This document shows, piece by piece, positions 18,529-52,903 of a stretch of 64,000 bases of DNA (positions are counted from its first letter, which is position 1; each line of letters starts with the position of its first letter). The notes under the pieces are model-generated. The model saw nothing but the letters and a program-made list of their open reading frames with translations, had not been told where the DNA came from and searched no databases. Origin of the DNA: Alphaproteobacteria bacterium (GTDB lineage Bacteria > Pseudomonadota > Alphaproteobacteria > RF32 > CAG-239); the NCBI GenBank assembly GCA_900769705.1, contig CAAGHP010000016.1, positions 13,210 to 77,209 on the forward strand. Reading direction: 5' to 3'. The translations under genes and the position numbers were made by a program.

Positions 18529-19185
18529 ATGTATAAAAATTTTGAAACAGGGCGCTCTATGATAGAAATGCTTGGCGTACTGGCAATTGTCGGTGTTCTT
18601 TCGGTCGGGGGAATCGCCGGTTATTCCAAAGCGATGGAACAATGGAAGATAAATAAAATTTTAAATGAATATAGTTATTTGATTTATGGTTTAATGGAGC
18701 ATTTATCCGACTATAAAAAACTAACCACAGCCAACTCAGGAGATGCCTCCAGTATTGGTTTGGGAGAAGCTATTATGGCCGCAGGGATTGTACCGCAGAC
18801 TTGGACTAAGGGAAATAGAGGTCCGCGTCAGCTTTTCGATTCAGATGGCAATACTGTAAATATTTTTTCACGCAGCCAAAGACTGGTCGTTGACTTATAT
18901 ATAGGAACTCAATACATAAATGATGATGGTAAAAGTGTGTCGGCAAATTTCTCTGCAGGATTATGCCGCGAATTGTTTTTAAACTTAGCCAAGCCGATTG
19001 CCGGTACTTTACATTGGGCCAGACTATACCGCAGCAACGAAACATCTCCGGTTTTGTTTTGGGGAAACAACACATGCAACGGAGCCGATAGAAAATGTCT
19101 GAACAGTATAACTTTATCAGAAATTGACGCTGCCTGTAAATTATGTATGAAAGATGACGTCTGTTGCATTGGATTAGAATTTTAA
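18529..19185 (+). CDS. prepilin-like protein (class III signal peptide-like N-terminus, Cys-rich C-terminus), paralog 1
   Basis: Leader 'MYKNFETG' then 'RSMIEMLGVLAIVGVLSVGGIAGYS' (Glu at +5 after Gly); C-terminal 'C..KCL..ITLS.I..C..C...C' motif shared with 3 paralogs. Confidence 0.5.
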   Translation: MYKNFETGRSMIEMLGVLAIVGVLSVGGIAGYSKAMEQWKINKILNEYSYLIYGLMEHLSDYKKLTTANSGDASSIGLGEAIMAAGIVPQTWTKGNRGPRQLFDSDGNTVNIFSRSQRLVVDLYIGTQYINDDGKSVSANFSAGLCRELFLNLAKPIAGTLHWARLYRSNETSPVLFWGNNTCNGADRKCLNSITLSEIDAACKLCMKDDVCCIGLEF

Positions 19186-19274
19186 TAATCCTAAAAAATC
19201 TCTTGACTTAGAGTAAGCTCTAAGTTTTATGCTGAGCACAGAATCGTTACATTATAATTTTTAAGGAGAAAATT

Positions 19275-21020
19275 ATGTTATTGGAAACAATAAACTCACC
19301 TAAAGATATAAAAAAACTTTCACTGACAGAATTACAGCAGTTGGCTCAGGAAATCCGCGAGGGTATTTTGAACCGAGATAGCTTGATTGGCGGTCATGTG
19401 GGACCAAATTTGGGTATTGTGGAAACTATTATCGCTTTGCACTATGTTTTTGATACGCCGAAAGATAAAATTGTTTATGACGTTTCGCACCAATGCTATC
19501 CGCATAAAATGCTGACCGGTCGTTGGAAAGGCTTTTTTGACACTGAAGAAATGCGGAAGATTTCCGGCTACACTAATCCGGCAGAAAGTGAATACGACAG
19601 CTTTATCGTGGGACATACTTCTACTTCTGTCAGCTTAGCAACCGGTTTGGCTAAGGCTCGCGACCTGCGCGGCGAACAACATAAGGTTATCGCTCTTATC
19701 GGCGATGGTTCTCTTTCCGGCGGCGAGGCTTTAGAAGGCTTTAGCAATGCTGCGGTTTTAAACGGTAATATTTTGATTATTGTCAACGATAACGAAATGT
19801 CTATCGCCGAGAATCACGGCGGAATTTATAACAATCTGCGTCTGTTGCGCGAAACCAACGGCGCGGCGGAATGTAATATGTTTAAGGCTTGGGGATTTGA
19901 ATATCGCTACGTTGCCGATGGTAATAATCAAGAAAATATGATTAAGGTTTTGCAAGAACTTAAAGATGTGAAAAAGCCAACGGTTTTACATATTCATACC
20001 CTAAAAGGCAAGGGGTATGCACCGGCAGAAGAAAATAAGGAACGTTGGCATTGGAGTTTGCCGTTTAACCGCAAAACCGGAGAAATTACAGCTGACATAT
20101 CTGGTGAAAATTACAATGATATAACCTACGATTTTTTATATACCCGTCATCAGCAAGATAAAAATATGGTGGTTATTTCCGCCGGCACTCCGGGGGCATA
20201 CGGCTTAAATCCGGAACGCCGCGCTTCATTCGGCGAAAACTATGTTGATGTGGGGATTGCCGAAGAACAGGCCGTGGCAATGGCGTCGGCTTTGGCAAAA
20301 GGCGGCTGCCGTCCGGTGTTTATGGTTTACAGCAGCTTTTTACAGCGCACTTACGACCAGCTGTCGCAGGATTTGGCTTTAAACAACAATCCGGCGGTTA
20401 TTTTGGTGTTCAGCGCCGGTATCAGCGGTATGGACGCCACCCACTTGGGCAGCTTTGATATTCCGCTGGTTGCCAATATACCAAACCTTGTTTATTTGGC
20501 CCCGACCGGCAAAGAAGAATATTTGGCTATGCTGAATTGGGGTTTGAAACAAAATGAACATCCGGTGGTTATTCGTGTGCCGTTAGCTGTGACTAAAGGC
20601 GGAAAAGCCGAAGAAAGTTATGCCGATTTGAACCGCTATCAGCTAGTTAAACAAGGTTCTAAAGTTGCGGTTTTAGCGCTGGGTAGTTTTTTTGAACTTG
20701 GTGAAAACGTGATGGCTGAATTAAAAGAGCAGGGCATTGACGCGACCTTGATTAACCCTCGCTATATTACAGGTGTTGATGAAAAATTGCTCAATGAATT
20801 AGCAAAAAATCATCAGGTTGTTGCAACTTTGGAAAATGGCGAACTGGACGGCGGTTTCGGTCAAAAAATTGCCTCATTTTACGGCGCCAGCAATGTAAAG
20901 GTTTTGAATTTCGGTGCTAAAAAAGAATTTACCGACCGTGTTCCGTATGATGAGCTTATAAAGCGCTATCATTTGACAGCCGAACAAATAACGGCTGATA
21001 TTCTGGCGGTTTTAAAATAA
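19275..21020 (+). CDS. dxs: 1-deoxy-D-xylulose-5-phosphate synthase-like transketolase
   Basis: N-terminus 'LLETINSPKDIKKLS...GGHVGPNLGIVETIIALHYVFDTPKDKIVYDVSHQCYPHKMLTGR' is DXS-specific; TPP-binding 'GDG' motif. At 581 aa it is somewhat shorter than typical DXS. Confidence 0.6.
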   Translation: MLLETINSPKDIKKLSLTELQQLAQEIREGILNRDSLIGGHVGPNLGIVETIIALHYVFDTPKDKIVYDVSHQCYPHKMLTGRWKGFFDTEEMRKISGYTNPAESEYDSFIVGHTSTSVSLATGLAKARDLRGEQHKVIALIGDGSLSGGEALEGFSNAAVLNGNILIIVNDNEMSIAENHGGIYNNLRLLRETNGAAECNMFKAWGFEYRYVADGNNQENMIKVLQELKDVKKPTVLHIHTLKGKGYAPAEENKERWHWSLPFNRKTGEITADISGENYNDITYDFLYTRHQQDKNMVVISAGTPGAYGLNPERRASFGENYVDVGIAEEQAVAMASALAKGGCRPVFMVYSSFLQRTYDQLSQDLALNNNPAVILVFSAGISGMDATHLGSFDIPLVANIPNLVYLAPTGKEEYLAMLNWGLKQNEHPVVIRVPLAVTKGGKAEESYADLNRYQLVKQGSKVAVLALGSFFELGENVMAELKEQGIDATLINPRYITGVDEKLLNELAKNHQVVATLENGELDGGFGQKIASFYGASNVKVLNFGAKKEFTDRVPYDELIKRYHLTAEQITADILAVLK

Positions 21021-21160
21021 TCTTTCATTATTGCGGCAAAAAGGGCTTCTGCTTAAATAAAAGAAGCTCTTTTTTGTTTGGCTGATGTAAAATCCGGCTT
21101 GCAAAGAAAGCTGAAACAACTTATTATACAAAATAATTATGACTATACTAAGGACTGAAA

Positions 21161-22288
21161 ATGAAAAACAAATATAATTATGATGCAAAGTTAGCCAAGC
21201 TGCAGCAGGATTTTTATATCTATTATCAAAAAAATTTACTGCAGGATTTCAAAAAACTGGAACAGGAAAGATATAAATATTTGGCCGGGTTTATTTTGTG
21301 TTGTACAATACTTTTTGCAGTGCATGCTGTTTTGTATTATGTTTTAGGCCGAAGTGACTTTATTGAGTGTATAACATCTAAAGCCGGTTTTTGCGGTGTG
21401 GCTATAGGCGTTTGGCTCTGCACGGTGCCGATTTCAAAATATAAAGGAGCCACTAAGTCTTTGGTGGCTGATAAGATATTGAAATTTTGGACAGATTTTC
21501 ATGAGAATAAAGCGAATATTCTAGCTGGTAATGATATTAAAAATTCCGAATTGTTTGACACATTTAATGATTATGAAAAAGATGATGAATTTGCCGGAAA
21601 ATATAAAGATAACGATGTTTGTATTTCGGAATATAATCTGAATTACAGGCGGCAAAAATCGGATATTACATTGTTTGATGGTATTTTGATATGGATAAGG
21701 CTAAAGAAAAAAGTCAGCTGCAGAACTATTTTGCGGTCTAATAAAGTGATATTGCCCGGCGGACTGACCGGAAATATTTATGTGGTGCTGAATTGTTTTG
21801 TATTGCTTTTTTTGATGGGATTGATGATTTATATGCAGACGATGTTCGGTCGGCCGTTTGAAATAGATGTTGTTACACTGTTTTTTAATTATGCCGTGTT
21901 TGCGGTAATGCCGATATTACTGATTTATATTTTATACCGAATATTTATCAAAACTCAGCTGAAAAGCAGCTTGAAACATAGTATCAATTTGGAAGATATA
22001 GATTTTGAAAAAAAGTGGAAAGTGTATTCGCAAGACCAGATAGAAGCCAGATGTTTACTGAATCCAAAATTTATGGAACAGCTTAAAAATGTGCAAAAAT
22101 ATTTTCATGGTAAAAAAATTGATTGTTCATTTTGGAAAAATAATCTGCTGATTGCCATTCATACCAATGAAGATATGTTTGAAACAACTTCGCTTTTTTC
22201 ATCGGCTTTGAGCTATAAAAATATGCGGAAAGTGGTTACGCAGTTTTACAGCGTTTTTGCTATTATTGAAGAGCTTAATGAAAAATAA
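21161..22288 (+). CDS. hypothetical membrane protein (two TM regions), AT-rich
   Basis: 375 aa; hydrophobic segments at ~40-90 and ~200-250; no catalytic motif recognised. Confidence 0.4.
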   Translation: MKNKYNYDAKLAKLQQDFYIYYQKNLLQDFKKLEQERYKYLAGFILCCTILFAVHAVLYYVLGRSDFIECITSKAGFCGVAIGVWLCTVPISKYKGATKSLVADKILKFWTDFHENKANILAGNDIKNSELFDTFNDYEKDDEFAGKYKDNDVCISEYNLNYRRQKSDITLFDGILIWIRLKKKVSCRTILRSNKVILPGGLTGNIYVVLNCFVLLFLMGLMIYMQTMFGRPFEIDVVTLFFNYAVFAVMPILLIYILYRIFIKTQLKSSLKHSINLEDIDFEKKWKVYSQDQIEARCLLNPKFMEQLKNVQKYFHGKKIDCSFWKNNLLIAIHTNEDMFETTSLFSSALSYKNMRKVVTQFYSVFAIIEELNEK

Positions 22289-22439
22289 ATTAGCATAGCA
22301 ATAAACTAAAAAAGCCTTACTATTAGACAGCGAAGATTTTTAGTATAAGATGCAAGGCTTTATTTACTAAAAACTCTAGGGTATAAGCCAAATATATACA
22401 ACTTTTTTCGCATAAAATTAACAAAAATATTATATAAAT

Positions 22440-23306
22440 TTAGGAAATTTTACTAAATTTTATTTTATAATTTAGTGCTTTTTGCGCCATCCAATTATAA
22501 ATGCGCTGCATGGATATATCTCCGTTGGCAGCAAAGTCTTCTGGGTGCCATTGAATGCATAAAATATTCTTTTCGACGTTTCCCCAAGATTCTGGAATAT
22601 TGTCTTCGGTTCTGGCATAAATCGTCAGTTTACTATCCGAAGCATAAGGCAACATGGATTCCGTATGGCGGGAATTTGTTTCAATTTCTTCTGTCTGCAA
22701 AATGTCATACAGCGGTGATGGATTTTTAATTAAAACTTTGTGCGCGTCTAAAATCTTGGTTTTATGTTCAATATCTGTATTTGTATATTGTTTGGTGTTG
22801 CGGTACATTTTCATACCCAACACGCCGCCAATCATTTGCGCACCGGCACAAATGCCAAGCATTGGCAGATGTTCTTTCAAGGCCTCGGTAATACAATTCA
22901 AATATGCGGCGGCTCGCGGTTCGTATTTTGTCGAGGTGTTTGGAGCGGCGTCGCAATAAAATTGCTCAGGGGATGGAAATCTGCCGCCCGGCAAAATCAA
23001 GCCGTGAATTCCGTTCATTTGCTCGGCGCAAGAGGAGTAGGTTAAAAAACGTATGTTTACGCCGGATTGTAAAATAGCGCGGGCGTAGTTGTAGTCAATA
23101 GTATAGTAATTTTCATCGCGTCCCAGCAAAAAAGCAACAGTCGGTTTGTTATCTTTAGACGCGTCGGCAAGCTGCTCAATATCCTGAGGAGCTAAAGAAA
23201 TAAAAGGAATTATGTTTTGTTTTTCAAATACGTTTATTTTTTCATCGCTGATGCCGTAAGCTTTATATTGCGGCAGATATTCTAAAGTAACAGATTGTGT
23301 GTGCAT
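22440..23306 (-). CDS. class I glutamine amidotransferase-like / peptidase C26 (gamma-glutamyl hydrolase-type)
   Basis: Nucleophile 'GICAGAQM' and 'IQWHPE' His motif of the GATase1/C26 fold. Confidence 0.6.
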   Translation of the reverse strand: MHTQSVTLEYLPQYKAYGISDEKINVFEKQNIIPFISLAPQDIEQLADASKDNKPTVAFLLGRDENYYTIDYNYARAILQSGVNIRFLTYSSCAEQMNGIHGLILPGGRFPSPEQFYCDAAPNTSTKYEPRAAAYLNCITEALKEHLPMLGICAGAQMIGGVLGMKMYRNTKQYTNTDIEHKTKILDAHKVLIKNPSPLYDILQTEEIETNSRHTESMLPYASDSKLTIYARTEDNIPESWGNVEKNILCIQWHPEDFAANGDISMQRIYNWMAQKALNYKIKFSKIS

Positions 23307-23460
23307 TGCTTTTCCTTTTTTTATACTAATGATTTTTACGGAAATAAATTTTTTGTGTCAAGAGTACATGAAATATAAAATTACATTTTTTCAATAGAAA
23401 AAGTGCTGAATATGACATTTTTTAGTAGGAAAAAAGTGTAAATGGCAGGAGAGATAAAGC

Positions 23461-23490
23461 AAAAGCCTCACTTTGCAGTGAGGCTTTTTA
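23461..23490 (-). terminator. intrinsic terminator downstream of the 23496-24266 gene
   Basis: 'aaaagcctcac-tttgca-gtgaggctttt' perfect 10-bp stem with flanking U/A runs. Confidence 0.5.
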
Positions 23491-23495
23491 GGTGT

Positions 23496-24266
23496 CTATT
23501 TAAGTTTATAGACTGTTATCTGACGAACTTTGAAACGCTCAACCAACATACCAGGTTTGGCGTTAGCCCATTTAGGGTCATTATAAATATGTAATCTGAC
23601 TTTCTGACCGCTGGTAAAGGTTACATCAATAATTGAGATTGTAGTTTTGCTTTGTGTTTTGTAATTTCTGATTATTGTTTTGTTAATTTCAGATTGCGTA
23701 TTAGCATAAGACCAATGAGTTACTTGATCTATGCTTGGGTTTAAATTTGCTTCAAATTGTTTTGTAGTCCAATTATCACTTAAATGTACTGAATAATCTT
23801 TATAAGCCGAAACCAATTTAACATTTTTAATTTTCAGAAGCTTTCTGTCTTTTTTATAAACAGGTTGAAGAATTCTGTCATCAGAATAGAGCAGCATACC
23901 TTTTCTATATAATCCTTCTTTATACTTATGAAAAATTGAACTGACTTTTTTTGCTGGGTAAACTTGTTTGTAATCATTATGATAATTAGATATTGTAGTG
24001 ATGATTACTTTTTTCAATTCACTGTCATATATATAATTAGGTTGAGAGTAGCGGAATTCAAGCGAAGTTGTAGCATCTGATTTACAAATAACTCTTGAGG
24101 TGTACCAATCACGCATTGCATAACGCATACCTTTAACAAAGAAAGAGGATTTTTCATATAAGCTTTCTTTAACTTTTATATTATCCAGTCTATAGAACCT
24201 GATTTGAGCCGAAGCGTTAAAGTTAAACACAAAAGTCATCAAGATAACTAAAAATAATCTCATCAT
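23496..24266 (-). CDS. hypothetical secreted protein (signal peptide), AT-rich
   Basis: 256 aa; N-terminal signal peptide 'MMRLFLVILMTFVFNFNASA'; Lys/Tyr-rich; no known domain recognised. Confidence 0.4.
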   Translation of the reverse strand: MMRLFLVILMTFVFNFNASAQIRFYRLDNIKVKESLYEKSSFFVKGMRYAMRDWYTSRVICKSDATTSLEFRYSQPNYIYDSELKKVIITTISNYHNDYKQVYPAKKVSSIFHKYKEGLYRKGMLLYSDDRILQPVYKKDRKLLKIKNVKLVSAYKDYSVHLSDNWTTKQFEANLNPSIDQVTHWSYANTQSEINKTIIRNYKTQSKTTISIIDVTFTSGQKVRLHIYNDPKWANAKPGMLVERFKVRQITVYKLK

Positions 24267-24508
24267 AATAAAACCGGAATGTTTAAAGAGTCTTTGTTTG
24301 ACCGGATACTCTGTATATAATAATAAATAGATAAACGTAATGTAAAATATTTGAAAATTTTTGTCAATATTGTTTTGCTGGATTAAATTTAAAAAACACT
24401 TGAATTTAAAATTTATTTGCGGTATAAAGCTTTTTGTCTGAGTTGTTCGGGCGAATTGGCATGCCTGACAGCTTGTTGTTTAATTCCAGTTTATTGAAAG
24501 GGAATAAA

Positions 24509-31259: not shown

Positions 31260-31611
31260 TCTGGGTTTGTTTAAAGAGGGGGTGCCCTATTACACGTCCC
31301 GTTCCCTCTGAAAAGTTAATAATATTAAAAATAATTTCAAATATAACTATTTTATAGCTTATTTATAGACAAAAGTCAAGGAGAGTTTTTGAAATATTTT
31401 GGCAAAACTTAGCCCTTTACTTTTTTCAAGATGTTTGTTAGTTTAGCAAACAGATGGGCAATAGTCTGTCTGGGGTGTGGTAGCCTCTTCAGTATACGTC
31501 TGCAGTATCAGACGATAAATAATACCTTCTGGCTAAAGGGCTGGAAGGTAGCAGAATGTGCTATAAGCTAATATGCTACACTATTTTATACTGAATAGCT
31601 TACCAACTTCC

Positions 31612-31636
31612 AGCTGTCTCGCCGACAGCTTTTTTG
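31612..31636 (+). terminator. terminator-like hairpin + T-run ~30 nt upstream of the start codon of prepilin-like paralog 2
   Basis: 'gctgtc-tcgcc-gacagc' followed by 'ttttttg'. Confidence 0.4.
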
Positions 31637-31665
31637 TTGTAATTCCAAAATGATAGGAAGTTGTT

Positions 31666-32466
31666 ATGATATTAAAAAATTTGAAAAATTGTTTGGTCTT
31701 TCGTCTGTTCTCTTTCATTCTCAACTTCATGCTTGCGTGCGAGCATAGCGAACTACTGCAAACATTTAGGAATGTAATGTCAATATTATTGAAGCGGATG
31801 TACAATCCTGTATCCTCTGCGAATGAGCTGACGCTCAAAGCAAAGGATGATAAAAATAGGGTGTTGCAAATTGGTCGTTCAATGATAGAAATGCTCGGCG
31901 TGCTGGCTATCATCGCTGTACTGAGTGTCGGCGGAATAGCAGGATATTCAAAAGCCATGGAAATGTATAAAATCAATAAAACATTGGAGCATTATAACTA
32001 TTTAGTTTTGGGAATGCTTGACTACGTTAGAGAAACTAAAAATTTGGCAGAACAAACAAATACAGGTATGACAATGATTGCCGAAGCAGCTGGGCTTATT
32101 CCGGCAACATGGCAAAAGGAAAACAACTTTAATCTAAGAGATGACATGGAAAACATTGTGCAGATTTTTGCTAACAAAACACATCTTTCTATTGATTATA
32201 TTTTCCAAAATTCTGAAAAACACTCAATAACAGATAAATTATGCAATAATTTGTTCAATAACACATTAAAACCGTTAAGCAACAGTATTCAGGTTATTTA
32301 TGTTACAATAGCCAATAAGATAAATTTTGCTATTTATTATGGTAATACAACCTGTGATGCAGCCAAATCAAAAAAATGTCTCAGAGATGTAGAATTAAGC
32401 GATATAAGAGATTCCTGTAACTTTTGTGCCGAGCAAAAATTTTGTTCTATAGCTGTAAAGTTTTAA
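31666..32466 (+). CDS. prepilin-like protein, paralog 2, with ~70-aa N-terminal extension before the 'GRSMIEML' hydrophobic segment
   Basis: 'MILKNLKN...ACEHSEL...RMYNPVSSANELTLKAKDDKNRVLQIG|RSMIEMLGVLAIIAVLSVGGIAGYS'; C-terminal Cys motif 'C..KCL...LS.I...C..C....C'. Confidence 0.5.
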   Translation: MILKNLKNCLVFRLFSFILNFMLACEHSELLQTFRNVMSILLKRMYNPVSSANELTLKAKDDKNRVLQIGRSMIEMLGVLAIIAVLSVGGIAGYSKAMEMYKINKTLEHYNYLVLGMLDYVRETKNLAEQTNTGMTMIAEAAGLIPATWQKENNFNLRDDMENIVQIFANKTHLSIDYIFQNSEKHSITDKLCNNLFNNTLKPLSNSIQVIYVTIANKINFAIYYGNTTCDAAKSKKCLRDVELSDIRDSCNFCAEQKFCSIAVKF

Positions 32467-38496: not shown

Positions 38497-38840
38497 TGAA
38501 ACTCGTCTAGCTGGTATCTGCTAGGGATTTTTGCGCTCGTGTACTAATCTGTACACGTCGCTTAAAAATTCCGTCGCATCTACGCACGCTATCCGAGTTT
38601 CTGAGAGTTTGTGCCGGTTGCAGCAATAAGCAGCCGGTATTTTTGTACGTTAAAATTTTCTCTCTTCTGGTTTTAACGCTATCTACACTACTATTTGCAA
38701 TTTTTGAGTTAGTGTATTTTGTGCTTATGTACTGGTTTGTACACTGCGAAAAAATCTTATTTTGCATTAAGCTCATTATCCGAATTTTTGCGAGTGAGAA
38801 CCGGTTGTTAGAAAATAGCAGCCGGTATTTTTGATAGGCT
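38497..38840. repeat. composite REP/MITE-like intergenic repeat block (locus 2)
   Basis: Begins at the first base after the pyk stop with 'gaaactcgtctag'. Shares the 'gcgctcgtgtacta..ctgtacac' and 'gtactggtttgtacactgcgaaaaaatctta.tttgcattaagctcattatccga' units with 30547-30860. Contains two copies of a 'ccggttg..cagccggtattttt' terminator-like hairpin. Confidence 0.55.
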
Positions 38841-38904
38841 AAAATTTCCTTTGCTTGGGATAGATTTTATTTATCTGCTTACTAAATAGTAGATAAAAAT
38901 ATAT

Positions 38905-39324
38905 CTATAGTGTATAAAATTTTTTTTCGGCAGGAGAAAATGTTATTGAAGAACGGATTGAAGATTTTACTTTTGTCTGAATAGCTTCAGGCAGAGTGCC
39001 GATTATTTTAAATTTTCCATTATTATACAACTCTTTAATTTGTTGCTTTTCAATTTTTTGCATACCGCCTTTACCGCAATGAATGCAGCAATCTTTAGTT
39101 AATTCTTCAGGCCAATCTTTTGTTGATAACTCTACTACTGAGGTCGTATCATATCTTGCGCGCAGTTTTACTTTTTCTACTTTTGAAGTAATGTATAAAT
39201 ATTCCATTGTTTCGGCGTTTACTATTATAATTAAGCGATGCTCTTTATCGCTGCCTATGGGTAAGGGCGCCTTGTAAACTTTCCATCTGTCCAATGGAAT
39301 CATCTTAAATGGCAAATCAATCAA
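38905..39324 (-). CDS. hypothetical protein; candidate toxin partner (PanT-like) of the upstream Panacea-domain protein
   Basis: 139 aa; start overlaps the stop of the Panacea-domain gene by 8 nt (operonic); no known toxin fold recognised; contains 'DCCIHCGKGG'. Confidence 0.4.
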   Translation of the reverse strand: MIDLPFKMIPLDRWKVYKAPLPIGSDKEHRLIIIVNAETMEYLYITSKVEKVKLRARYDTTSVVELSTKDWPEELTKDCCIHCGKGGMQKIEKQQIKELYNNGKFKIIGTLPEAIQTKVKSSIRSSITFSPAEKKFYTL

Positions 39325-39919
39325 TTTTATCTCTTAACGCATTTAAAAAATCTTCGTCCATGGTAAATACATCGTCATGCAAGCCTTTTGTTTTAGATTT
39401 TTCTAAAGTATCAGGGTTTAGTAAAAAGTCTTTTTCATCCATTAAAAAACGATTGCCATCAACACCCAATTTTTTCTCAAATTTTTTCCATTCAGGGTAA
39501 TCATGTGAAATATCACTCAAATCAAATTGACTGAACTTTCCAAAATTTGAAATAGAAAAATCTAAAGCTTCTTTAAAACTTTCTGAAAGTTCATCATCAC
39601 TTTGTGGTTTAATATAAACTGAATATTTATTAAGATTTTCAACGTCTTTTAATAAATTTGCGTCCGAAACTGCTGCACACTCAGGCAACCGGTGTTCCAT
39701 TATATCTTTAGCAGCTGAAGCAATTGGTCCCTTTTTTATGGCATAATAAGAATCATCAGAAGCTAAGCATCCATAATGACGCATATGATAACGATCTGCA
39801 AAGAATAAAATTTTTAAAAAATACATAACAGTTTGCTTGCTGTTGTTTGCAGCAGGAGCATGGTTTTGAATATAAAAAAGCGCTTGCAATATTTTGCGCA
39901 TAGAAATTGTATAAGACAT
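39317..39919 (-). CDS. Panacea (DUF4065) domain protein, putative antitoxin (SocA/PanA-like)
   Basis: 'KQTVMYFLKILFFADRYHMRHYGCLASDDSYYAIKKGPI' matches the DUF4065 core ('KLqKLlYfaq...AwkyGPV'). Confidence 0.55.
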   Translation of the reverse strand: MSYTISMRKILQALFYIQNHAPAANNSKQTVMYFLKILFFADRYHMRHYGCLASDDSYYAIKKGPIASAAKDIMEHRLPECAAVSDANLLKDVENLNKYSVYIKPQSDDELSESFKEALDFSISNFGKFSQFDLSDISHDYPEWKKFEKKLGVDGNRFLMDEKDFLLNPDTLEKSKTKGLHDDVFTMDEDFLNALRDKID

Positions 39920-40012: not shown

Positions 40013-40891
40013 TTATTCCATTTCAACTGTAACTGAGCAGCTTTCGGTTGCGCCTGTACATTTTTTGCAAACTTCATTGATTTGCTGAGGGGTAATGCTT
40101 GTTAAACACTGTTTATTAGAACTCTTGCAATATTTGTCGCCGTACCAATAATTTGCGGAGTCATTATTACCTTTGCCGGAGCGCCATACACCGGTAAAGG
40201 TAATAAAGCTGTGCAAGGGCGCAAAAACATTAGCCATGATTTCTTCACAGAATTTAGCAGAAAATGCCGGAGTTGTGGCAGCTCCGTCTGCGTCATAGTT
40301 TGCACCGCCTATTCCTATGCTGAATACGACTCTGTTCCAGCGGGAAAATAAAGAGCTGTGGTTGCCGTAAGCATCTAAAAAAGATGTGTTGTGATATGCG
40401 GCGGCGTTTTGGTCTATAGTCCAATTATCAGGGACTAATCCTAAGGCTTGTATGGTGTCAGCTATGCCGTATACATCGCCTCTGGAATTTAGTTTTTTAA
40501 AGTCTGAAAGATGTTCTACTAACCCCTGAACAAGCAGGTTATATTCTCCGATTGCCTTGGTTAGTTTAAATTTTTCCATGGCTTTGGAATATCCGGCAAT
40601 ACCGCCGACACTCAGCACAGCGATTATTGACAGAACGCCCAGCATCTCAATCATGGAACGGCCAAGTTGCAACACACTCCTATTGTCATCCTTGGCTTTG
40701 AGCGTCAGCTCATTCGCCGAGGATCCAGGATGGTACATCCGATTCAATGGTATTGCCTTTATATTCCTGGATTCTCGCGATAGTTCGCTATGCTCACACG
40801 CAAGAATGACGTTGCGAGAGAAGGCGAAAAAACGAGAGATATTACTATTTCCTTCTGTAAATTTATCGTTGCTTTTCAAATTCTTATACAT
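40013..40891 (-). CDS. prepilin-like protein, paralog 3, with long N-terminal extension
   Basis: Start reassigned to 'MYKNLKSND', with RBS 'GGAG' 9 nt upstream, the same context as paralogs 1 and 4. '...RMYHPGSSANELTLKAKDDNRSVLQLG|RSMIEMLGVLSIIAVLSVGGIAGYS'; C-terminal Cys motif. Confidence 0.5.
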   Translation of the reverse strand: MYKNLKSNDKFTEGNSNISRFFAFSRNVILACEHSELSRESRNIKAIPLNRMYHPGSSANELTLKAKDDNRSVLQLGRSMIEMLGVLSIIAVLSVGGIAGYSKAMEKFKLTKAIGEYNLLVQGLVEHLSDFKKLNSRGDVYGIADTIQALGLVPDNWTIDQNAAAYHNTSFLDAYGNHSSLFSRWNRVVFSIGIGGANYDADGAATTPAFSAKFCEEIMANVFAPLHSFITFTGVWRSGKGNNDSANYWYGDKYCKSSNKQCLTSITPQQINEVCKKCTGATESCSVTVEME

Positions 40892-40917
40892 ATTTTCTAA
40901 CTCCGAAATTGTTACAT

Positions 40918-41097
40918 AAAAACAAAACCCGCTGTACAAAAGCGGGCGGATGTTAGTAAACCGTATATATGCAAACGGCTCGGCTTATTCAGCCATATAG
41001 CCTTATTTAGCCGACATCCGTCCAACGGAAATCGGCATAAAAAATTTAAGTCGTTTATGCTCAAGCGACCGCATATATAAAGGGTTACTACGCCCTG
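40918..41097 (-). promoter_or_regulatory. conserved structured 5' leader element, copy B, with terminator hairpin, upstream of prepilin-like paralog 3
   Basis: Reverse complement aligns block-for-block with 18319-18497 and 52933-53112. Terminator 'cccgct-tttgtac-agcggg' plus 'ttttgttttt'. Confidence 0.45.
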
Positions 41098-41197
41098 AAA
41101 GCACTATTGCACTTTCACATTTTAATTTAGCTGAGACGTATTGAAAAGTAAAGCTAAAAAAACACCCCTGATAAAAAATCAGAGGCGTTTTTTTTGA

Positions 41198-46403: not shown

Positions 46404-47249
46404 ATGGAACAGAAAGTTATAAAAGTCGGTAAGGTTGAAATCGGCAATAAACTGCCTCTGGCAATTATTGCCGGCCCGTGTCAAATCGAAAGTCGCCAGC
46501 ATGCAATTTTTATTGCCGGTAAAATGGTGGAAATTGCTGAAAAACTCGGTGTTCCATATATTTTTAAGGCTTCTTTCGATAAAGCCAATCGTACTTCAAT
46601 TAACAGTGCGCGCGGTGTTGGATTGGAAGAAGGCATGCGTACTTTTGAAGAAATCCGCAAATTATATCCTGATTTGCCGCTTTTGACCGATATTCATGAA
46701 CGCGAGCAATGTTCGATTGTCGCTCAATATGTAGATATGCTGCAAATTCCGGCGTTTTTATGCCGCCAGACTGATTTGGTGGTGGCTGCGGCAAAAACCG
46801 GTAAAGTGGTTAATATTAAAAAAGGTCAATTTTTGGCACCGTGGGATGTAAAAAACATTGTAAAAAAAGTTGAAGATTCCGGCAACTTTAATATTTGCGT
46901 GACCGAGCGCGGCACCAGTTTCGGCTATAACACTTTGGTAACAGATATGCGTGCATTTCCGCAAATTGCCAAAGATTGCGGATATCCGCTTATTTTTGAC
47001 GCTACTCATTCGGTTCAGCAGCCGGGAGGTCTTGGCGGCTGTACCGGAGGTCAGCGTGAGTTTGCTCCGGTTTTGGCGCGTGCGGCGGTGGCAGTGGGTG
47101 TAGCTGCCGTATTTATTGAAACGCATGAAAATCCGGAAAAGGCTTTGTCTGACGGGCCAAACTCTATTTATCTGTCGGATATGGAAAGAGTTATCAGCGA
47201 GTTGATGGCGTTTGATAAGGTTAATAAATCTATAATTCATGAGTATTAA
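46404..47249 (+). CDS. kdsA: 3-deoxy-8-phosphooctulonate (KDO8P) synthase
   Basis: 281 aa; DAHP/KDO8P synthase fold motifs 'KASFDKANRTS', 'DATHSVQ'. Confidence 0.85.
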   Translation: MEQKVIKVGKVEIGNKLPLAIIAGPCQIESRQHAIFIAGKMVEIAEKLGVPYIFKASFDKANRTSINSARGVGLEEGMRTFEEIRKLYPDLPLLTDIHEREQCSIVAQYVDMLQIPAFLCRQTDLVVAAAKTGKVVNIKKGQFLAPWDVKNIVKKVEDSGNFNICVTERGTSFGYNTLVTDMRAFPQIAKDCGYPLIFDATHSVQQPGGLGGCTGGQREFAPVLARAAVAVGVAAVFIETHENPEKALSDGPNSIYLSDMERVISELMAFDKVNKSIIHEY

Positions 47250-47255
47250 GCTAAA

Positions 47256-47990
47256 ATGCAGTTCAGCGGCGAAGGATATATTATAAAGCTGAAAAATCAC
47301 GGTGAAAAGTCGATGATTGCTACTTTAGTATGTCCTGAACACGGCAAAATTGTCGGCTTTATTAACGGAGCGCACAGCAAACGCGGCTTGGGTATTTATC
47401 AGCTTGGCAACTATATTTCTTTTAATGCTTATGCGCGGGTTGAAGAAAATATGCTAAGTCTGAAAGGCGTGGAACTGATGGAAGCGCATACGGCGGATTT
47501 TATGCTGGATACCGATAAAATCGGCGCGCTTTCTTCGCTTTGCCGGCTGTTGGATGTCTGTGTAGCCGAAAATGATAATTTAGGCAGTTTTTACAAAGTG
47601 ATAAAAGATTTTTTTCAGCATATTCATGAGGATAATTGGCTGGTATATTATTCATTTTTTGAATATTATCTGCTGGATTTTTTAGGTGTTGGGCTGGATG
47701 TGAGCGAATGCGCTGTAACCGGCAAAACCAATGATTTATCATACATATCTCCAAAAACAGGATGCGCCGTGTGCACAAAAGTCGGAGAGCCTTATAAGGA
47801 CAAGCTCTATGCTTATCCGCACTATATTGTAGATAAAAACTACCGTCCGCAGCGTGCCGAAGTGGCAGATTTACTGGCAATGACCGGAGGATTTTTGACA
47901 AAAAATTTTTTAGCCGGACATAACTTGCAATTACCGGAAAAACGTGCTAATTTGCTGAACAGTGTTAAAAAATATCAGATGAAAATGTAG
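47256..47990 (+). CDS. recO: DNA repair protein RecO
   Basis: 244 aa; OB-fold N-terminus plus Cys4 zinc motif 'C..TG.......C..C' in the RecO arrangement. Confidence 0.65.
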   Translation: MQFSGEGYIIKLKNHGEKSMIATLVCPEHGKIVGFINGAHSKRGLGIYQLGNYISFNAYARVEENMLSLKGVELMEAHTADFMLDTDKIGALSSLCRLLDVCVAENDNLGSFYKVIKDFFQHIHEDNWLVYYSFFEYYLLDFLGVGLDVSECAVTGKTNDLSYISPKTGCAVCTKVGEPYKDKLYAYPHYIVDKNYRPQRAEVADLLAMTGGFLTKNFLAGHNLQLPEKRANLLNSVKKYQMKM

Positions 47991-47997
47991 GTGAAAA

Positions 47998-50217
47998 ATG
48001 GTTGAAGAAAATGCCAAAATAAAAGATGTGCAATTGGGCGAGGAACTTAGCAAACGCTATTTGTCGTATGCCATGTCAACCATTGTTTCGCGTTCGTTGC
48101 CTGATGTGCGCGATGGTTTGAAGCCTGTGCATCGCCGTTTGATGTATGCAATGAGGCAACTGCACTTAGACCCGAAAAACGGCTTTAAGAAATGCGCACG
48201 TGTAGTCGGCGACGTTATCGGTAAATATCACCCGCACGGCGATACGGCGGTTTACGGCGCAATGGTGCGTTTGGCGCAGGATTTCTCGGTGCGCTATCCG
48301 TTGGTCGACGGGCAGGGCAATTTTGGCAATATTGATGGCGACGGCGCAGCGGCTATGCGTTATACCGAAGCTCGTTTGACAGAGTTTGCCATGGATTTGA
48401 TGGACGGTTTAAACGATGATGCCGTCGATTTTATGGATACGTATGACGGCGAAGACAGCGAACCGGTTGTGATGCCGGCGATGGTACCAAACTTGCTGTG
48501 CAACGGTTCTATGGGTATTGCTGTGGGTATGGCAACCAACATCCCTCCGCATAATTTGAGTGAAATAAGCGATGCTTTGCTGTATCTTATAGAAAATCCT
48601 GATTGTGACGATGAACCGTTGGTGCGCCGTTTAAAAGGCCCTGACTTTCCGACCGGAGGAGTGATTGTTGATTCGTTTGACACTATTTTGAATAATTATA
48701 AACAAGGCAAGGGAAGTTTTCGTATCCGCGCCAAGTGGACAACCGAAGATTTGGGGCACGGACAGTATCAAATTGTAGTAACAGAGATTCCGTATCAGGT
48801 AATTAAGTCCAAATTGATTGAAAAAATTGCTGAACTGCTGCTAAATAAAAAACTGCCTTTTTTAAGCGATGTGCGCGATGAATCGGCGCAAGACGTGCGT
48901 ATTGTGCTGGAACCTAAAAACCGCACGGTTGACGCCGCTATGCTGATGGAGCAATTATTCCGCCAAACCGATTTGGAAGCTAAATTCAATATGAATATGA
49001 ACGTGTTGGATTTAGACTGTGTGCCGAGAGTTATGAGCATCAAAGAAGTACTGCATGATTATTTGGTGCACCGCAATGATGTTTTGCTGCGTAAAATTAA
49101 GTTCCGTTTGAGTAAAATCAATGCGCGTTTGGAAATTTTGGAAGGCTATTTGACCGCTTATTTGAATTTGGATGAAATTATCCGTATAATTCGTGAAGAA
49201 GACGAGCCGAAAAAAGTGATGATGGCAGAATTTAAGCTGACAGATAATCAAGCTGAAGCTATTTTGAATATGAAACTGCGTAACTTGCGCAAGCTTGATG
49301 AAGAACAGATTAACGCCGAACATTCGGATTTGCTGGAAGAAAAGGCCAAATTGGAAATTTTGCATGACGATGAATCGCAGCGCTGGAAGGCTATTGCCGA
49401 AGAAATTAAAAAGACTAAAGAAAAATACAGTAAAAAAACGGCTCTGGGCCGCCGTCGCACCGAATTTGCCGAAGCTCCGGCGGATATAGATGTTCCGGTG
49501 GAAGCACTGATAGAAAAAGAGCCGATTACGGTTATTTTGTCGCAAAAAGGCTGGATACGCTGCATTAAAGGACATGTGGATTTGAATGACGACTTTAAGT
49601 TCAAAGACGATGATGCTTTGCTGTATGCTATACATGCTCAGACTACCGATAAAATTGTGTTGCTGGATAATAAGGGTAAATTCTTTAATGTCGCAGCAAA
49701 AGATATTCCTAGCGGTCGCGGTTTCGGACAGCCGGTGCGTCTGATGATAGATTTAGCCAATAATGATGAAGTTATTTCTATGTTTGTTTATGAGCAGGGA
49801 GTAAATTATTTGATTGCTTCTGATAAGGGGTACGGATTTATTGTGGACGAAAATCATCTGTTGGCACAAACCCGCAGCGGACGTAAAATTATGAACGTGG
49901 CTGACGGCGAAAATATGAAATTCTGCTTGCCAATGACCGGCGATTATGTGGCTGTAGTTGGTGAAAACCGCCGCTTATTGGTGTTTAAGGCCGAAGAAAT
50001 TCCGACTATGGCGCGCGGTCATGGCGTATTGCTGCAAAAGTTTAAGGACGGCAATATTTCCGATATTCAAATTTTCAAAGGCGAAGACGGCTTCAGTTAT
50101 AACCGCGCCGGCGGAATTAGTACTGAAAAAGAGCTTATCGGCTGGCTGGGGCATCGGGCACAAATCGGTAAAGTTGTGCCTTTCGGCTTCCCTAAGAGCA
50201 ATAAATTTCTAAAATAA
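47998..50217 (+). CDS. parC: DNA topoisomerase IV subunit A
   Basis: Type IIA topoisomerase A-subunit '[11 protein letters not shown]' active-site Tyr region; 739 aa (ParC length rather than GyrA). Confidence 0.75.
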
Positions 50218-50220
50218 TCA

Positions 50221-50257
50221 AAAAAAAATCTGCGTTGATTCGCAGATTTTTTTTTAC
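50221..50257. terminator. bidirectional intrinsic terminator after parC
   Basis: 'aaaaaaaatctgcg-ttgatt-cgcagattttttttt'. Confidence 0.6.
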
Positions 50258-50340
50258 GCTAATTTAAACTTGACAAAAACAATCAATCTCGCTACTTTAT
50301 AAAATATAATTTATATTATTAACTTTTATATTTTTGTTTT

Positions 50341-50799
50341 ATGGGACAGTTATCTAAATTTGCGACGCCTATGCCTTTGGTATATGCTCATGGCGACAAT
50401 CTTTCGATTGTTTCGGAATTGGATTTGTCAAATAAGGACAGTCTGATTGGTATTAAACTGGACAGATTTACATTGTCTTTAACGCAGGATTTGGTTTCTT
50501 GGTATAACGCCTATTGGCTGATTGAGCAGAATTGTTTGCTGCACAAAACTCCGCGTTTGCCTGATGAAACAGACTGCTACAATATGATGCGCGATGTCGA
50601 TAGAATCAATGCTACATTGCAAATTTTGAAAGAGCAGGGTATTCGTGCTGATTTGCTGGATGTGGAAGGTATTTATTGGCTGCGTACAGAGTATTCGCGT
50701 GTTAAGTCATTTGCTTATATGATGAAAGAGCGTCTGAAGACACTGCGTGAAAAGTTTGATGATAATTCTTGCTGGGCCAGAATGATTTGGTATAACTAA
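50341..50799 (+). CDS. hypothetical protein, member 1 of a tandem paralog triplet
   Basis: 152 aa; shares an 'MPL(V/L)(Y/F)' segment and acidic/aromatic block with the next two ORFs (weak). Confidence 0.35.
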   Translation: MGQLSKFATPMPLVYAHGDNLSIVSELDLSNKDSLIGIKLDRFTLSLTQDLVSWYNAYWLIEQNCLLHKTPRLPDETDCYNMMRDVDRINATLQILKEQGIRADLLDVEGIYWLRTEYSRVKSFAYMMKERLKTLREKFDDNSCWARMIWYN

Positions 50800-50805
50800 A
50801 TTTTT

Positions 50806-51336
50806 ATGTCTATGAGTTCAAAAAATTCTAAGTTTTTCGTTATGGCAGCTTCTTTGTATAAACAGCTTTCTAAGCCGGAATTTTTTAAGCTGGATTTTGA
50901 AAAGCTGCAGGGAGCGCTGCTTCATTATGAAGCCTTAAAATTGACAAAGGCACTGATTCAAAACAGAAAAATGCCTTTGCTGTTTCCGTCAAACAATGCG
51001 GCGGAGGTGCTGAAATTTATGGCTGAACATTCGTATGGAACTGGTAATGATTTTTGTCATTGCTACTGTTCGCAGGACGAATTATGGAAAATGGTGCAGG
51101 CAGAAGATGACTACAACTGGTTTAAGGCCGCCGTTTCTGCCGATAAAGCTGATGATGTTTTAGGAAAATGGGCGGGGCTTATTACCGACTATGTTGCATC
51201 TCGCGGCAATTTTCCTAAGTCGCGCAAAAACATGTATGTGGCTGTGCTGACTTTAGATATTGAAGCTTTTGGAATGGTCTGCTCGTCAGCTTTCTTTTGC
51301 TGCTCATTTTTGAAAACTATGAAATTGCATGAATAA
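50806..51336 (+). CDS. hypothetical protein, member 2 of a tandem paralog triplet
   Basis: 176 aa; 'MPLLFPSNNAAEVL' and 'DELWKMVQAEDDYNWFKAAV...GKWAGLITDYV' align with 'GIMFPDKNVAALF' and 'AFLKMISSDEDYVHFKSLV...EKWCRMIRNTV' of the next ORF. Confidence 0.4.
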   Translation: MSMSSKNSKFFVMAASLYKQLSKPEFFKLDFEKLQGALLHYEALKLTKALIQNRKMPLLFPSNNAAEVLKFMAEHSYGTGNDFCHCYCSQDELWKMVQAEDDYNWFKAAVSADKADDVLGKWAGLITDYVASRGNFPKSRKNMYVAVLTLDIEAFGMVCSSAFFCCSFLKTMKLHE

Positions 51337-51345
51337 GATTAAAAA

Positions 51346-51378
51346 AACTTCCGATATTTAGTATCGGAAGTTTTTTTG
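51346..51378 (+). terminator. intrinsic terminator (hairpin identical to the one at 52041-52073)
   Basis: 'aacttccgatat-ttag-tatcggaagtt' plus 'tttttttg'. Confidence 0.55.
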
Positions 51379-51390
51379 TTAAATCAGAAT

Positions 51391-51419
51391 TTGACAAAAA
51401 TAAAAAAATAGGTTATACA
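51391..51419 (+). promoter_or_regulatory. sigma70-like promoter for the 51455 gene
   Basis: 'ttgaca' (-35), 17-nt spacer, 'tataca' (-10). Confidence 0.4.
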
Positions 51420-51454
51420 TTAACCATAATATTTATTATTTATTTTATTTTTTT

Positions 51455-52027
51455 ATGACAGATATTAAAAATTTTGTAAAAACTGTCAAAGAGTTTAATT
51501 CTCAGTTGACAGCAAAGATATTTACCGGCTTTGATTATGACTTTATTAACAAAGTTATAGTGTATTATTTTATACACAATAATGCCGGTATTATGTTTCC
51601 TGATAAAAACGTTGCAGCGTTGTTTGATAATCAACTGGCAGATAGCGGTTTTAGATCTTTTAAGGTAGATAAAGATGCTTTTTTGAAAATGATATCATCC
51701 GATGAGGATTATGTTCATTTCAAATCTTTAGTTTTGCCTAAGAACGGCGATATACTTCTTGAAAAATGGTGCCGCATGATTCGCAACACTGTTGACCGCA
51801 ATGTTAAATCAACGATGTCAACAAAGCTCGGACGCCATTCTATACCAGAAAAAACTATTGAGGTGATGATGGCTAAAGGTTTGTATAAAACGACAGAAGA
51901 AGCTAGAGCCGGCTATATTGAATCTCAAAAGCTGACAAAGTTTATTATGGGAACTTTTATATTTATGAGGGCAAGCTCTTATGTTTTTAGCTTTTTCAAA
52001 GAACAAGCCGAAAAGAAAAATGCTTGA
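51455..52027 (+). CDS. hypothetical protein, member 3 of a tandem paralog triplet
   Basis: 190 aa; paralogous to 50806-51336 (see above). Confidence 0.4.
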   Translation: MTDIKNFVKTVKEFNSQLTAKIFTGFDYDFINKVIVYYFIHNNAGIMFPDKNVAALFDNQLADSGFRSFKVDKDAFLKMISSDEDYVHFKSLVLPKNGDILLEKWCRMIRNTVDRNVKSTMSTKLGRHSIPEKTIEVMMAKGLYKTTEEARAGYIESQKLTKFIMGTFIFMRASSYVFSFFKEQAEKKNA

Positions 52028-52040
52028 AACTGCAACAAAA

Positions 52041-52073
52041 AACTTCCGATATTTTGTATCGGAAGTTTTTTTG
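52041..52073 (+). terminator. intrinsic terminator (same hairpin sequence as 51346-51378)
   Basis: 'aacttccgatat-tttg-tatcggaagtt' plus 'tttttttg'. Confidence 0.55.
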
Positions 52074-52246
52074 TCTTCAGAAAAAACACGTTGTTAACTG
52101 TTTCCTGATGAACTTCTTCCTTAAAGGGGGATTTCCTCTTTCTGGGGTACAGTTCATAAAATGCGTTGGTCTCTTTTTTATATCTTCAGTATTGATAAAT
52201 AATTTCAAAACATTCACATCTCTTACCTTGTATTTACTTGCGCAAA

Positions 52247-52903
52247 CTACAGGATAATCGTCAAGGCGCATCTTTTTGTTTTATCACAAGAGGAACACAT
52301 TGATTTCATTTTAGATAAAGTCATTGTGTTCAAACACGGACGACCGGTACTGCAAAAAGTGTCACCGTAGTAATACCCATTGCCGCCGGGCATTAAAATT
52401 CCTCTTATGGTATAATGAAGTGGCACCGCGATTTTATCCAAAACTTCAAAACATAAATTTCCGTTAAAGTTAGCTGCGATTTTTTCACCTTTGTCATTTT
52501 CCGTCAACCCGCCGAATATAAAGTCAATAATAATCCCCGATTCCTCTGGACTGGCATATCCGTACGCATTGCTGTACTCTCTGTAAAACGTACCAATAAA
52601 ATTTCCATAATTATCCTGTATATATTGAGATGAAATTTTTTGCCAAGTGTTGGGTATTAAATTTAAAGAAATCAACATATCAGACAAAAAAACTTGACCT
52701 TTTAGCTGCTCTTGCAAATTTTGTCTGTATTCCAACAGCCCGAAAATTAAATTATTATAATCGGTTATCAGTTTATTTATCTTGTACTTTTCCATAGCTT
52801 TTGAATATCCGGCGATACCACCTACACTAAGTACTGCGATAATCGCCAGAACGCCCAACATCTCAATCATACTGCGCCCGTTTTCTATAAATTTTTTGTA
52901 CAT
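52247..52903 (-). CDS. prepilin-like protein, paralog 4
   Basis: 'MYKKFIENG|RSMIEMLGVLAIIAVLSVGGIAGYSKAMEKYKINK'; C-terminal 'CSTGRPCLNTMTLSKMKSMCSSCDKTKRC'. Confidence 0.5.
   Translation of the reverse strand: MYKKFIENGRSMIEMLGVLAIIAVLSVGGIAGYSKAMEKYKINKLITDYNNLIFGLLEYRQNLQEQLKGQVFLSDMLISLNLIPNTWQKISSQYIQDNYGNFIGTFYREYSNAYGYASPEESGIIIDFIFGGLTENDKGEKIAANFNGNLCFEVLDKIAVPLHYTIRGILMPGGNGYYYGDTFCSTGRPCLNTMTLSKMKSMCSSCDKTKRCALTIIL

Follow-up and report, generated by a model that had tools for sequence, protein, structure and literature searches.

Putative type IVb-like prepilins encoded behind a structured RNA leader in an uncultured gut alphaproteobacterium

Type IVb pilins such as PilS of Salmonella Typhi and R64 and BfpA of enteropathogenic Escherichia coli (Pfam families PF08805 and PF05307) carry a class III signal with Gly at position −1, Glu at +5 and, at +1, a residue that is not Phe; their long N-terminal helix is joined to an alpha/beta head that C-terminal cysteines stabilise. 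The same features, those of helix and head taken from structure models, were found in four paralogous proteins encoded on a stretch of 64,000 nucleotides of an Alphaproteobacteria bacterium of the RF32 lineage (assembly GCA_900769705.1, contig CAAGHP010000016.1, positions 13,210 to 77,209), referred to below as the window. Unlike type IVb pilins, the proteins of the window have six cysteines, arranged in a pattern of their own, an Arg at +1 and leader peptides that are 8-9 or 70-77 residues long. Their family also differs in being present in dozens of dispersed copies that are not clustered with an assembly machinery, and in a head for which Foldseek found no match.

Two further systems are close in their organisation. 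The PilV minor-pilin adhesins in the thin pili of IncI plasmids (the shufflon of R64 and TP114) vary by site-specific DNA rearrangement within one gene, which joins a conserved pilin N-terminal part, as in the window, to many alternative C-terminal parts and probably alters gut binding specificity (PMC9045228). The variants in the window, in contrast, are encoded separately, by many full-length genes that each have a putative regulatory leader of their own. In Clostridioides difficile, c-di-GMP (cyclic diguanosine monophosphate) riboswitches are located upstream of pilA1 and of adhesin genes, which they control as a regulon (PMC6200980). The arrangement of a structured 5′ leader and an intrinsic terminator before genes for type IV pilins and other surface proteins is shared with the locus described here, but the leader of the window has a different fold, matches neither the c-di-GMP riboswitches nor any other Rfam family, and recurs dozens of times per genome.

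Rickettsia palindromic elements are in-frame selfish insertions in protein-coding genes. Set against what is generally known of these elements, the window likewise contains repeated modules within open reading frames (ORFs), in frame, free of stop codons and without amino-acid constraint, again in an alphaproteobacterial host; they differ in being nearly confined to one site (94%) and in being mosaics and not copies of a single consensus. Large repertoires of surface-protein variants with conserved 5′ ends are known from Neisseria (pilE/pilS) and Campylobacter fetus (sap). The present family has such a variant repertoire, and its relatives show head-to-head gene pairs, long inverted repeats and inverton-like repeats, whereas its members are complete, separately promoted genes with no sign of recent conversion and no orientation polymorphism seen.

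The four genes were present where a first-pass annotation, made from the sequence alone, had placed them, with the translations it described:

18529-19185, forward strand: paralog 1, 218 amino acids, with a leader peptide MYKNFETG (8 residues) followed by GRSMIEML, and a Cys-rich head
31666-32466, forward strand: paralog 2, 266 amino acids, with the putative cleavage-site Gly at residue 70, and a Cys-rich head
40013-40891, reverse strand: paralog 3, 292 amino acids, with the putative cleavage-site Gly at residue 77
52247-52903, reverse strand: paralog 4, 218 amino acids, with a leader peptide MYKKFIENG (9 residues); the copy used for structure models

The near-identical N-terminal segment reported for them was confirmed. 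In a six-frame scan of the whole window, the motif GRSMIEMLGVLAI(I/V)(A/G)VLSVGGIAGYSKAME occurred in exactly four copies, and when the paralogs were aligned, 49 columns proved invariant; among these are G-R-S-M-I-E-M-L-G-V-L and the block VLSVGGIAGYSKAME as well as, in the head, P/W, and the six cysteines. Conservation sets in abruptly at G-R-S. The N-terminus is prepilin-like (class III), as had been proposed, with Gly at −1, an invariant Glu at +5 and a hydrophobic helix; Gly, Glu and the hydrophobic block were invariant or at least 90% conserved in the four paralogs and in 51 sequences. The residue at +1 of the putative mature proteins is Arg. A conserved cysteine spacing at the C-terminus was likewise recovered, as C-x5-7-C(L)-x12-C-x2-C-x5-6-C in 4/4 paralogs. 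Over the 36 codons of the N-terminal block, the DNA of paralog pairs was 73-80% identical (about 80% in the first-pass annotation), with about 25 differences per pair, 16-20 of them at third codon positions; 13-20 codon differences per pair were synonymous and 1-7 non-synonymous. Identity across the whole mature region was only 56-60%. The predominance of synonymous differences over this block agrees with the earlier interpretation of old paralogs under purifying selection, without recent gene conversion.

Judged by sequence similarity, the paralogs are part of a very large, uncharacterised family of uncultured gut Alphaproteobacteria. The resemblance goes well beyond chance: relatives numbered 6981 in the databases at E≤1e-3. 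A profile of the head domain alone, made by removing the first 29 residues of the precursor, retrieved 834 clusters at 50% identity from 1.84 billion proteins, and in nearly all matches listed the aligned part starts either about 28 residues from the beginning of the protein or behind an N-terminal extension of greater length. In a collection of species-representative genomes, at least 578 stretches encode relatives; the best 80 of these came nearly all from metagenome-assembled genomes (MAGs) of uncultured gut Alphaproteobacteria, many from Hadza or Nepal samples, with a few bins of mislabelled taxonomy among them. The closest relatives are metagenomic, and the few labelled 'MAG: Alphaproteobacteria bacterium' are annotated as hypothetical proteins or 'type II secretion system protein'. 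Related DNA was fetched as 78 genome loci (1.26 Mb) and 76 metagenome loci, together about 1.8 Mb; such related loci are designated by L-numbers below. The genome loci contained 147 N-terminal motifs, 47 of which lie in 20 loci of a single assembly, CAKQRZ01, where at most two were counted twice through overlap of loci, leaving about 45 copies. Among 145 complete members in related loci, 141 were intact with a Cys-rich head and four had other heads. A phage origin of the family was ruled out, no relatives being found in viral contigs. Literature searches on the motif and the lineage returned nothing.

One of the four members with other heads (L045:5087-5767) scored 45.1 bits with the PilS model (cut-off 22) and 41 bits with Bundlin (cut-off 22.3). 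MAGs of the same kind encode its homologues, which make up a second large family with PilS/Bundlin Pfam domains, and several carry the NCBI name 'type 4 pilus major pilin'. The 35-residue N-terminus of these relatives, GRSMIEMLGVLAIIGVLSVGGIAGYSKAM, is identical to that of the window proteins. They start with ...GRSMIEMLGVLAIIGVLSVGGIAGYSKAMNKFK and end with ...C-x-C-x5-C-x-I-x-(W/K)-Y, and their C-terminus is similar in sequence to that of the window proteins. In a comparison with hhalign, the profile of the Cys-rich family (A3) aligned with that of the PilS-like family (A7) at a probability of 99.9% (E 3.1e-31, 202 columns). After removal of the first 29 residues, that is the leader and the N-terminal half of the helix, the alignment (A5 versus A7) still reached 96.7% (E 3.5e-10) over 173 columns, the C-terminal Cys motif included. 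The first-pass annotation had held that the Cys-rich domain is not that of classical type IVa/IVb pilins; a lack of any relation to type IVb pilins now seems untenable, since the profiles of both families align over about 200 columns, albeit with scores borne largely by the helix. The window proteins themselves match neither PF08805 nor PF05307 at the gathering threshold, nor any other Pfam or NCBIfam family. The type II secretion pseudopilin models of NCBIfam (GspG-K, PpdD-like) gave 11-18 bits, at the N-terminus only, against cut-offs of 138-160, and a sequence profile search of the PDB gave weak N-terminal matches (fimbrial protein, geopilin) and spurious matches to the gp41 coiled coil. 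The AlphaFold2 model of full-length paralog 4 (predicted local distance difference test, pLDDT, 86; predicted template modelling score, pTM, 0.79) shows a helix at residues 13-58 and then strands, and the head modelled alone reached pLDDT 93 and pTM 0.88. These comparisons suggest that, within the lineage-specific type IVb-like pilins, the Cys-rich proteins form a strongly diverged branch, whose head is new as far as structure can be detected.

Some of the PilS/Bundlin-type genes have surroundings of housekeeping genes. The gene at L045:5087-5767 adjoins secY-adk. A tandem pair with a GRSMIEML N-terminus (L082:10001-10657 and 10680-11393) lies in a region with lptD, surA and lptF/lptG, and tandems are also present in L083 and L085. 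At L072:14210-16318, downstream of a ComM/Mg-chelatase-like gene and directly upstream of two non-Cys-rich pilin-like genes, a 702-residue protein without Pfam or NCBIfam match is encoded, which is a candidate partner of the pilin system.

Each of the four paralogs is preceded by about 270 nt of conserved non-coding DNA. The order is a promoter-like site (invariant CTTTAC as −35 box, TAnnnT as −10 box), a leader of about 200 nt, a G+C-rich hairpin followed by a U-tract, a Shine-Dalgarno sequence and the ATG, which for paralog 3 lies at 40891. A terminator scan recognised the hairpin in 4/4 window leaders, at 25-40 nt from the start codon:

18263-18498, forward strand: promoter-like site (CTTTAC −35 box at 18263-18268, TACTAT −10 box at 18287-18292) and type A leader RNA of paralog 1 (about 18299-18498), with its terminator hairpin at 18468-18488
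31415-31640, forward strand: promoter-like site and type B leader RNA (about 31451-31640), with its terminator hairpin at 31612-31630
40917-41153, reverse strand: promoter-like site and type A leader RNA (about 41117-40917), with its terminator hairpin at 40947-40927
52932-53167, reverse strand: promoter-like site (TTTACA-17-TAAACT) and type A leader RNA (about 53131-52932), with its terminator hairpin at 52961-52942

A search with nhmmer recovered 51 leader copies in the window and the related loci. Two sequence types were distinguished, type A before the paralogs starting at 18529, 40891 and 52903 and type B before the paralog starting at 31666. RNAalifold analysis of 36 distinct copies gave a structure of 43 base pairs, 28 of which show compensatory changes. 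Paired cells amounted to 96.3%, versus 75.8% in column shuffles (0/500) and 29-46% with slid partners, and the covariation score was 0.638, where shuffles gave 0.26 and slid controls no more than 0.107. Folds of single sequences had z-scores of the minimum free energy of −4.9 and −4.5. The fold consists of a 5′ hairpin, whose GCAAUAG loop is conserved, a long-range closing helix, a hairpin of segments X and Y with a GNRA tetraloop in most type B copies, and a bipartite stem with conserved internal loops. The inner part of the closing helix is hypervariable yet always complementary, with GC, CG, AU and UA all found at single positions. The loop of an internal hairpin and the downstream linker pair into a pseudoknot, for which the duplex energy was −3.35 between a copy's own partners versus −1.98±0.24 between cross partners (0/5000). 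The terminator abuts the closing helix. Segment Y can pair alternatively with the upstream X or with Z, which overlaps the 5′ arm of the terminator, and both pairings were better between own partners than in cross-pairings. Covariance models of Rfam 15 were run at the gathering threshold, where the window yielded only a tRNA, and at E≤10, where the leader fell in no family and its best match was sRNA-Xcc1, whose 30.4 bits (E 0.003) fell short of the gathering score of 53. The leader is a well-supported, unannotated structured RNA absent from Rfam.

The genes behind the leader were surveyed with 76 exact matches of the type A core in metagenome contigs. A pilin-like family gene followed in 39 cases, a lipoprotein gene with a lipobox in 21-23, another ORF in 5-7 and no ORF in four; in five copies the downstream sequence was too short to judge. 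Since the leader precedes both pilin-like and lipoprotein genes, it appears to define a surface-protein regulon. The 'major pilin' genes of the PilS/Bundlin type lack the RNA leader. The interval from terminator to ATG is too short to hold a promoter, so the gene can be transcribed only by passage through the terminator. From this layout and the alternative pairings, we infer that the leader acts as a transcription attenuator or a riboswitch-like switch.

Two more specific mechanisms were tried and rejected. In type A leaders, an 11-codon ORF, MPISVGRMSAK (41038-41003 on the reverse strand, and equivalents), overlaps the X:Y hairpin and has no Shine-Dalgarno sequence; it is absent from type B and probably not a regulatory peptide, and attenuation of the trp type was discarded. 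An antiterminator pairing of a 5′ GGGCG with the terminator arm is not conserved in type B, and in neither type did upstream sequence covary with the terminator arms. Further observations on the leader concern its occurrence and its resemblance to a known RNA. The lipobox lipoproteins behind it belong to several families (for example MKKLFLILTIGVFAGFLSSC... and MKRVIMLLISVLYISGC...), encoded in the metagenome loci L087, L090, L095, L100, L102, L104, L108, L126, L140 and others. Type A leaders also stand before a few restriction-modification-like or unassigned ORFs. The sub-threshold match to sRNA-Xcc1, an integron-associated small RNA, covers positions 40936-41023 on the reverse strand, and an outer stem enclosing two hairpins is present in both RNAs.

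Paralogs 2 and 3 have longer ORFs because of an in-frame insertion of about 190-210 nt between the start M-x-K-N and the Gly of GRSMIEML. The window contains three copies of such modules, the third being its sole orphan copy:

31687-31872, forward strand: insertion module in the leader-peptide coding region of paralog 2, in frame and free of stops
40664-40873, reverse strand: insertion module in the leader-peptide coding region of paralog 3, in frame and free of stops
38505-38594, reverse strand: orphan copy of another module type (the '..ATGFLSDVYK..' type), intergenic, with no family gene after it

Over its last 144 nt (48 codons), the module of paralog 3 is 83% identical to that of paralog 2, and the differences are spread over the codon positions as 7, 8 and 10. 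Genes bearing the RNA leader comprised 35 with a short leader peptide and nine with insertions of about 60-300 nt, which place the codon of the cleavage-site Gly 87-318 nt from the ATG. All nine insertions are in frame, with no stops in the frame of the gene and 0-16 in the other frames. In most members without an RNA leader, the Gly is preceded by 50-200 codons that contain no stop and are composed of a few recurrent mosaic modules; in the last 60 codons of 77 such members, 44 stops were counted in the gene frame versus 296 and 348 in the other two. Differences between modules fell evenly on the three codon positions, as 1179, 881 and 1296, with 1887 non-synonymous versus 679 synonymous codon differences. 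In the adjacent mature block the counts were 26133, 16179 and 119153, and the synonymous excess was 8.5:1. Of 738 sites matching a module, 692 (94%) adjoin starts of family genes.

The depletion of stops without amino-acid constraint suggests that selection acts only on the reading frame of the insertions. The pattern would be explained if the ATG that follows the RNA leader is the translation start and the mature protein can do without the region before the Gly, so that in-frame junk is tolerated there. A prepilin peptidase that removes the leader peptide would fit such tolerance; a signal anchor that stays uncleaved, with the insertions in its cytoplasmic tail, would fit equally. Three other accounts of the insertions were considered. 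Genome-wide miniature inverted-repeat transposable elements were ruled out by the 94% of matches adjoining family genes, and an untranslated 5′ RNA by the depletion of stops in the gene frame only and by the 9/9 insertions in frame; functional pro-peptides are unsupported, the modules being without amino-acid constraint. Beside the orphan module, at 38600-38850, lies a pair of direct repeats (AAAATACCGGCTGC...CTCGGATA...), and similar direct repeats were seen downstream of family genes at L009:10650-10840.

In some relatives, the RNA leader is replaced by inverton-like repeats. In about 25 related loci, family genes that start with MFKGIEFF have, immediately ahead of their Shine-Dalgarno sequence and ATG, a segment of about 134 nt bounded by inverted repeats of 21 nt that match perfectly (TGTGTAAAAAAAACGACCGTT and its complement). 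This element is absent from the 64-kb window. All 20 informative copies in the assemblies had the same orientation. From its sequence and position, the segment is a candidate invertible promoter. Examples are L009:9337-9512, L002:9635-9810 and L012:9728-9903, the first of which lies between divergent family genes. These head-to-head genes carry a 285-nt inverted repeat, 86% complementary (L009:8969-9253 and 9831-10115), that spans the N-terminal coding block and the upstream module, and such pairs are found in many loci. The 285-nt repeats could allow inversion between copies.

Several results weigh against a role of the Cys-rich proteins as pilus subunits. Neither in the window nor in the roughly 1.8 Mb of related DNA did a prepilin peptidase, an assembly ATPase, a platform protein or a secretin turn up, apart from one PilT-like ATPase. 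The first-pass annotation had already reported the window to be free of pilus assembly genes; this held both for the window genes, among which no type II secretion genes occur either, and in tblastn searches with E. coli HofB/HofC/PpdD and GspD/E/F/G/K/L/M/O. The sole match of these searches in the window and the 78 genome and 76 metagenome loci was a 317-residue ATPase of the T2SSE family, closest to PilT/PilU (L059:18280-19233 on the reverse strand, also in L133), which at 113 bits against a cut-off of 319 is below threshold for every NCBIfam model. Look-ups of the genomic context of family and PilS-like proteins returned housekeeping neighbours only. PF07963 (N_methyl) gave 12.4-14.3 bits in three of the four paralogs (cut-off 21.2), leaving the copy at 40013-40891 unmatched, and TIGR02532 gave 11.3-12.6 bits in three (cut-off 16.3), leaving that at 31666-32466 unmatched, so the two profiles by which the first-pass annotation would have its prepilin assignment checked stayed below threshold for all four proteins. 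Both hhalign scores are carried largely by the common helix, with low confidence in the middle of the alignment, and when a single PilS-like sequence was taken for comparison, the alignment was confined to the last 35 residues, at a probability of 4.5%. Structure prediction of the mature domains bore out a long N-terminal helix running into an alpha/beta head, but not a pilin head, as Foldseek matched the predicted head to no solved structure and hence to no solved pilin. To our knowledge, Arg at +1 is unreported for characterised type IV pilins.

These results bear on a reading in which the class III signal is an export or anchoring device only and the proteins are membrane-anchored or released disulfide-rich periplasmic or surface proteins, not filament subunits, along the lines of the substrate-binding proteins of the archaeal 'bindosome' or of cargo or pseudopilins of a type II secretion-like system. 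It is favoured by the lack of assembly machinery linked to any of about 150 family genes, by the head without structural match to pilins and the sub-threshold N_methyl models, by dozens of copies per genome, which is unusual for pilins, and by the lipoprotein genes driven by the same leader, which make the regulon one of 'surface proteins' rather than of a 'pilus'. The identity of the 35-residue N-terminus to that of PilS/Bundlin-type 'major pilins' of the same lineage argues the other way, as do an hhalign alignment extending along the whole protein and the N-terminus being the most strongly conserved part, as expected for packing in a filament core. On balance, we consider anchoring alone rather unlikely. 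We regard it as fairly probable that the paralogs are massively expanded, lineage-specific type IVb-like prepilins, each under an attenuator or riboswitch-like leader.

Two other readings concern the copies and the upstream element. Conserved ends around a variable middle in many dispersed copies, together with the head-to-head pairs and 285-nt inverted repeats of relatives, would suit a system in which most copies are silent cassettes whose middles are converted into one expressed locus with the ends as homology arms, as in Neisseria pilE/pilS. Such a system is very improbable here, as each of the four copies in the window is a complete gene equipped with a promoter-like site, a leader, a Shine-Dalgarno sequence and a start codon of its own, only four of the 145 copies in related loci fall outside the 141 intact ones, and conserved blocks 73-80% identical with synonymous changes indicate coding selection on each copy and no recent conversion. 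Instead of a regulatory leader, the upstream element might be a multicopy gene for an independent small RNA, or a mobile cassette with a promoter, placed before these genes by chance, given its own promoter-like site and terminator, its presence upstream of unrelated genes (lipoproteins and the few restriction-modification-like ORFs), the four cases with no following ORF and the weak sub-threshold resemblance to sRNA-Xcc1. This is improbable as well: the element always points to an adjacent start codon at 25-40 nt, leaving no promoter room, it runs into an in-frame family ORF in 35/35 short-leader and 9/9 insertion cases, and the alternative Y:Z pairing overlaps the terminator.

If the paralogs are expanded type IVb-like prepilins, the pre-protein would insert into the inner membrane and a prepilin peptidase would cut after the Gly, removing the leader peptide. 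Because of this removal, we propose, leader peptides of 8 to more than 100 residues arising from unconstrained insertions would be tolerated. The mature subunit, starting with Arg, would be fed into a type IV filament built on the common helix, and the interchangeable disulfide-rich heads would present alternative adhesive or antigenic surfaces. The leader would respond to some ligand or factor and gate transcription past the terminator, controlling the pilin repertoire and the lipoprotein gene set jointly. A bolder version is put forward tentatively and with less confidence: the leader may be a new riboswitch class or a factor-dependent attenuator through which one signal gates dozens of interchangeable pilin variants and lipoproteins, the leader peptide may be a 'safe harbour' for in-frame junk, and the many complete RNA-gated genes, with inverton-like repeats in some relatives, may represent a previously unseen organisation of surface variation.

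The window has a G+C content of 39% and carries housekeeping genes (dxs, pheT, proS, recJ, parC/gyrA-like, rpoD, pyk, mdoG), and the paralogs are therefore scattered across the core chromosome. Directly downstream of paralog 3 (38905-39919, reverse strand), a SocA/Panacea-domain antitoxin-like gene (39317-39919) overlaps an ORF of 139 codons without assigned function (38905-39324); the two may be a toxin-antitoxin pair. A 1076-residue restriction-modification fusion of the Eco57I/N6_Mtase type (58755-61985, reverse strand) and a gene with AAA_15 and OLD-like TOPRIM nuclease domains (62169-63893, forward strand) likely form a defence island at 58755-63893, with tRNA-Ala nearby at 57230-57305. 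In the related loci, the gene for the PilT-like ATPase (L059) lies about 800 nt from a family gene and adjoins that of an FxLYD-domain protein.

The host bacteria are common uncultured members of human and animal gut communities, and their surfaces are almost uncharted. The most novel element of the locus is regulatory, namely the covariation-supported, pseudoknotted leader with its terminator before each copy and before lipoprotein genes. The leader has a clear genetic read-out in termination before surface-protein genes, which makes the question of its signal approachable in vitro without culturing the host. The insertions in the leader peptide are evidence, genetic but indirect, that the mature protein does not require this segment, and are a rare example of selection on the reading frame only. 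About 45 pilin-like variants per genome of about 2 Mb (an assumed size) would rank among the largest pilin expansions known, and so large a variant repertoire points to strong pressure from hosts, phages or neighbouring cells.

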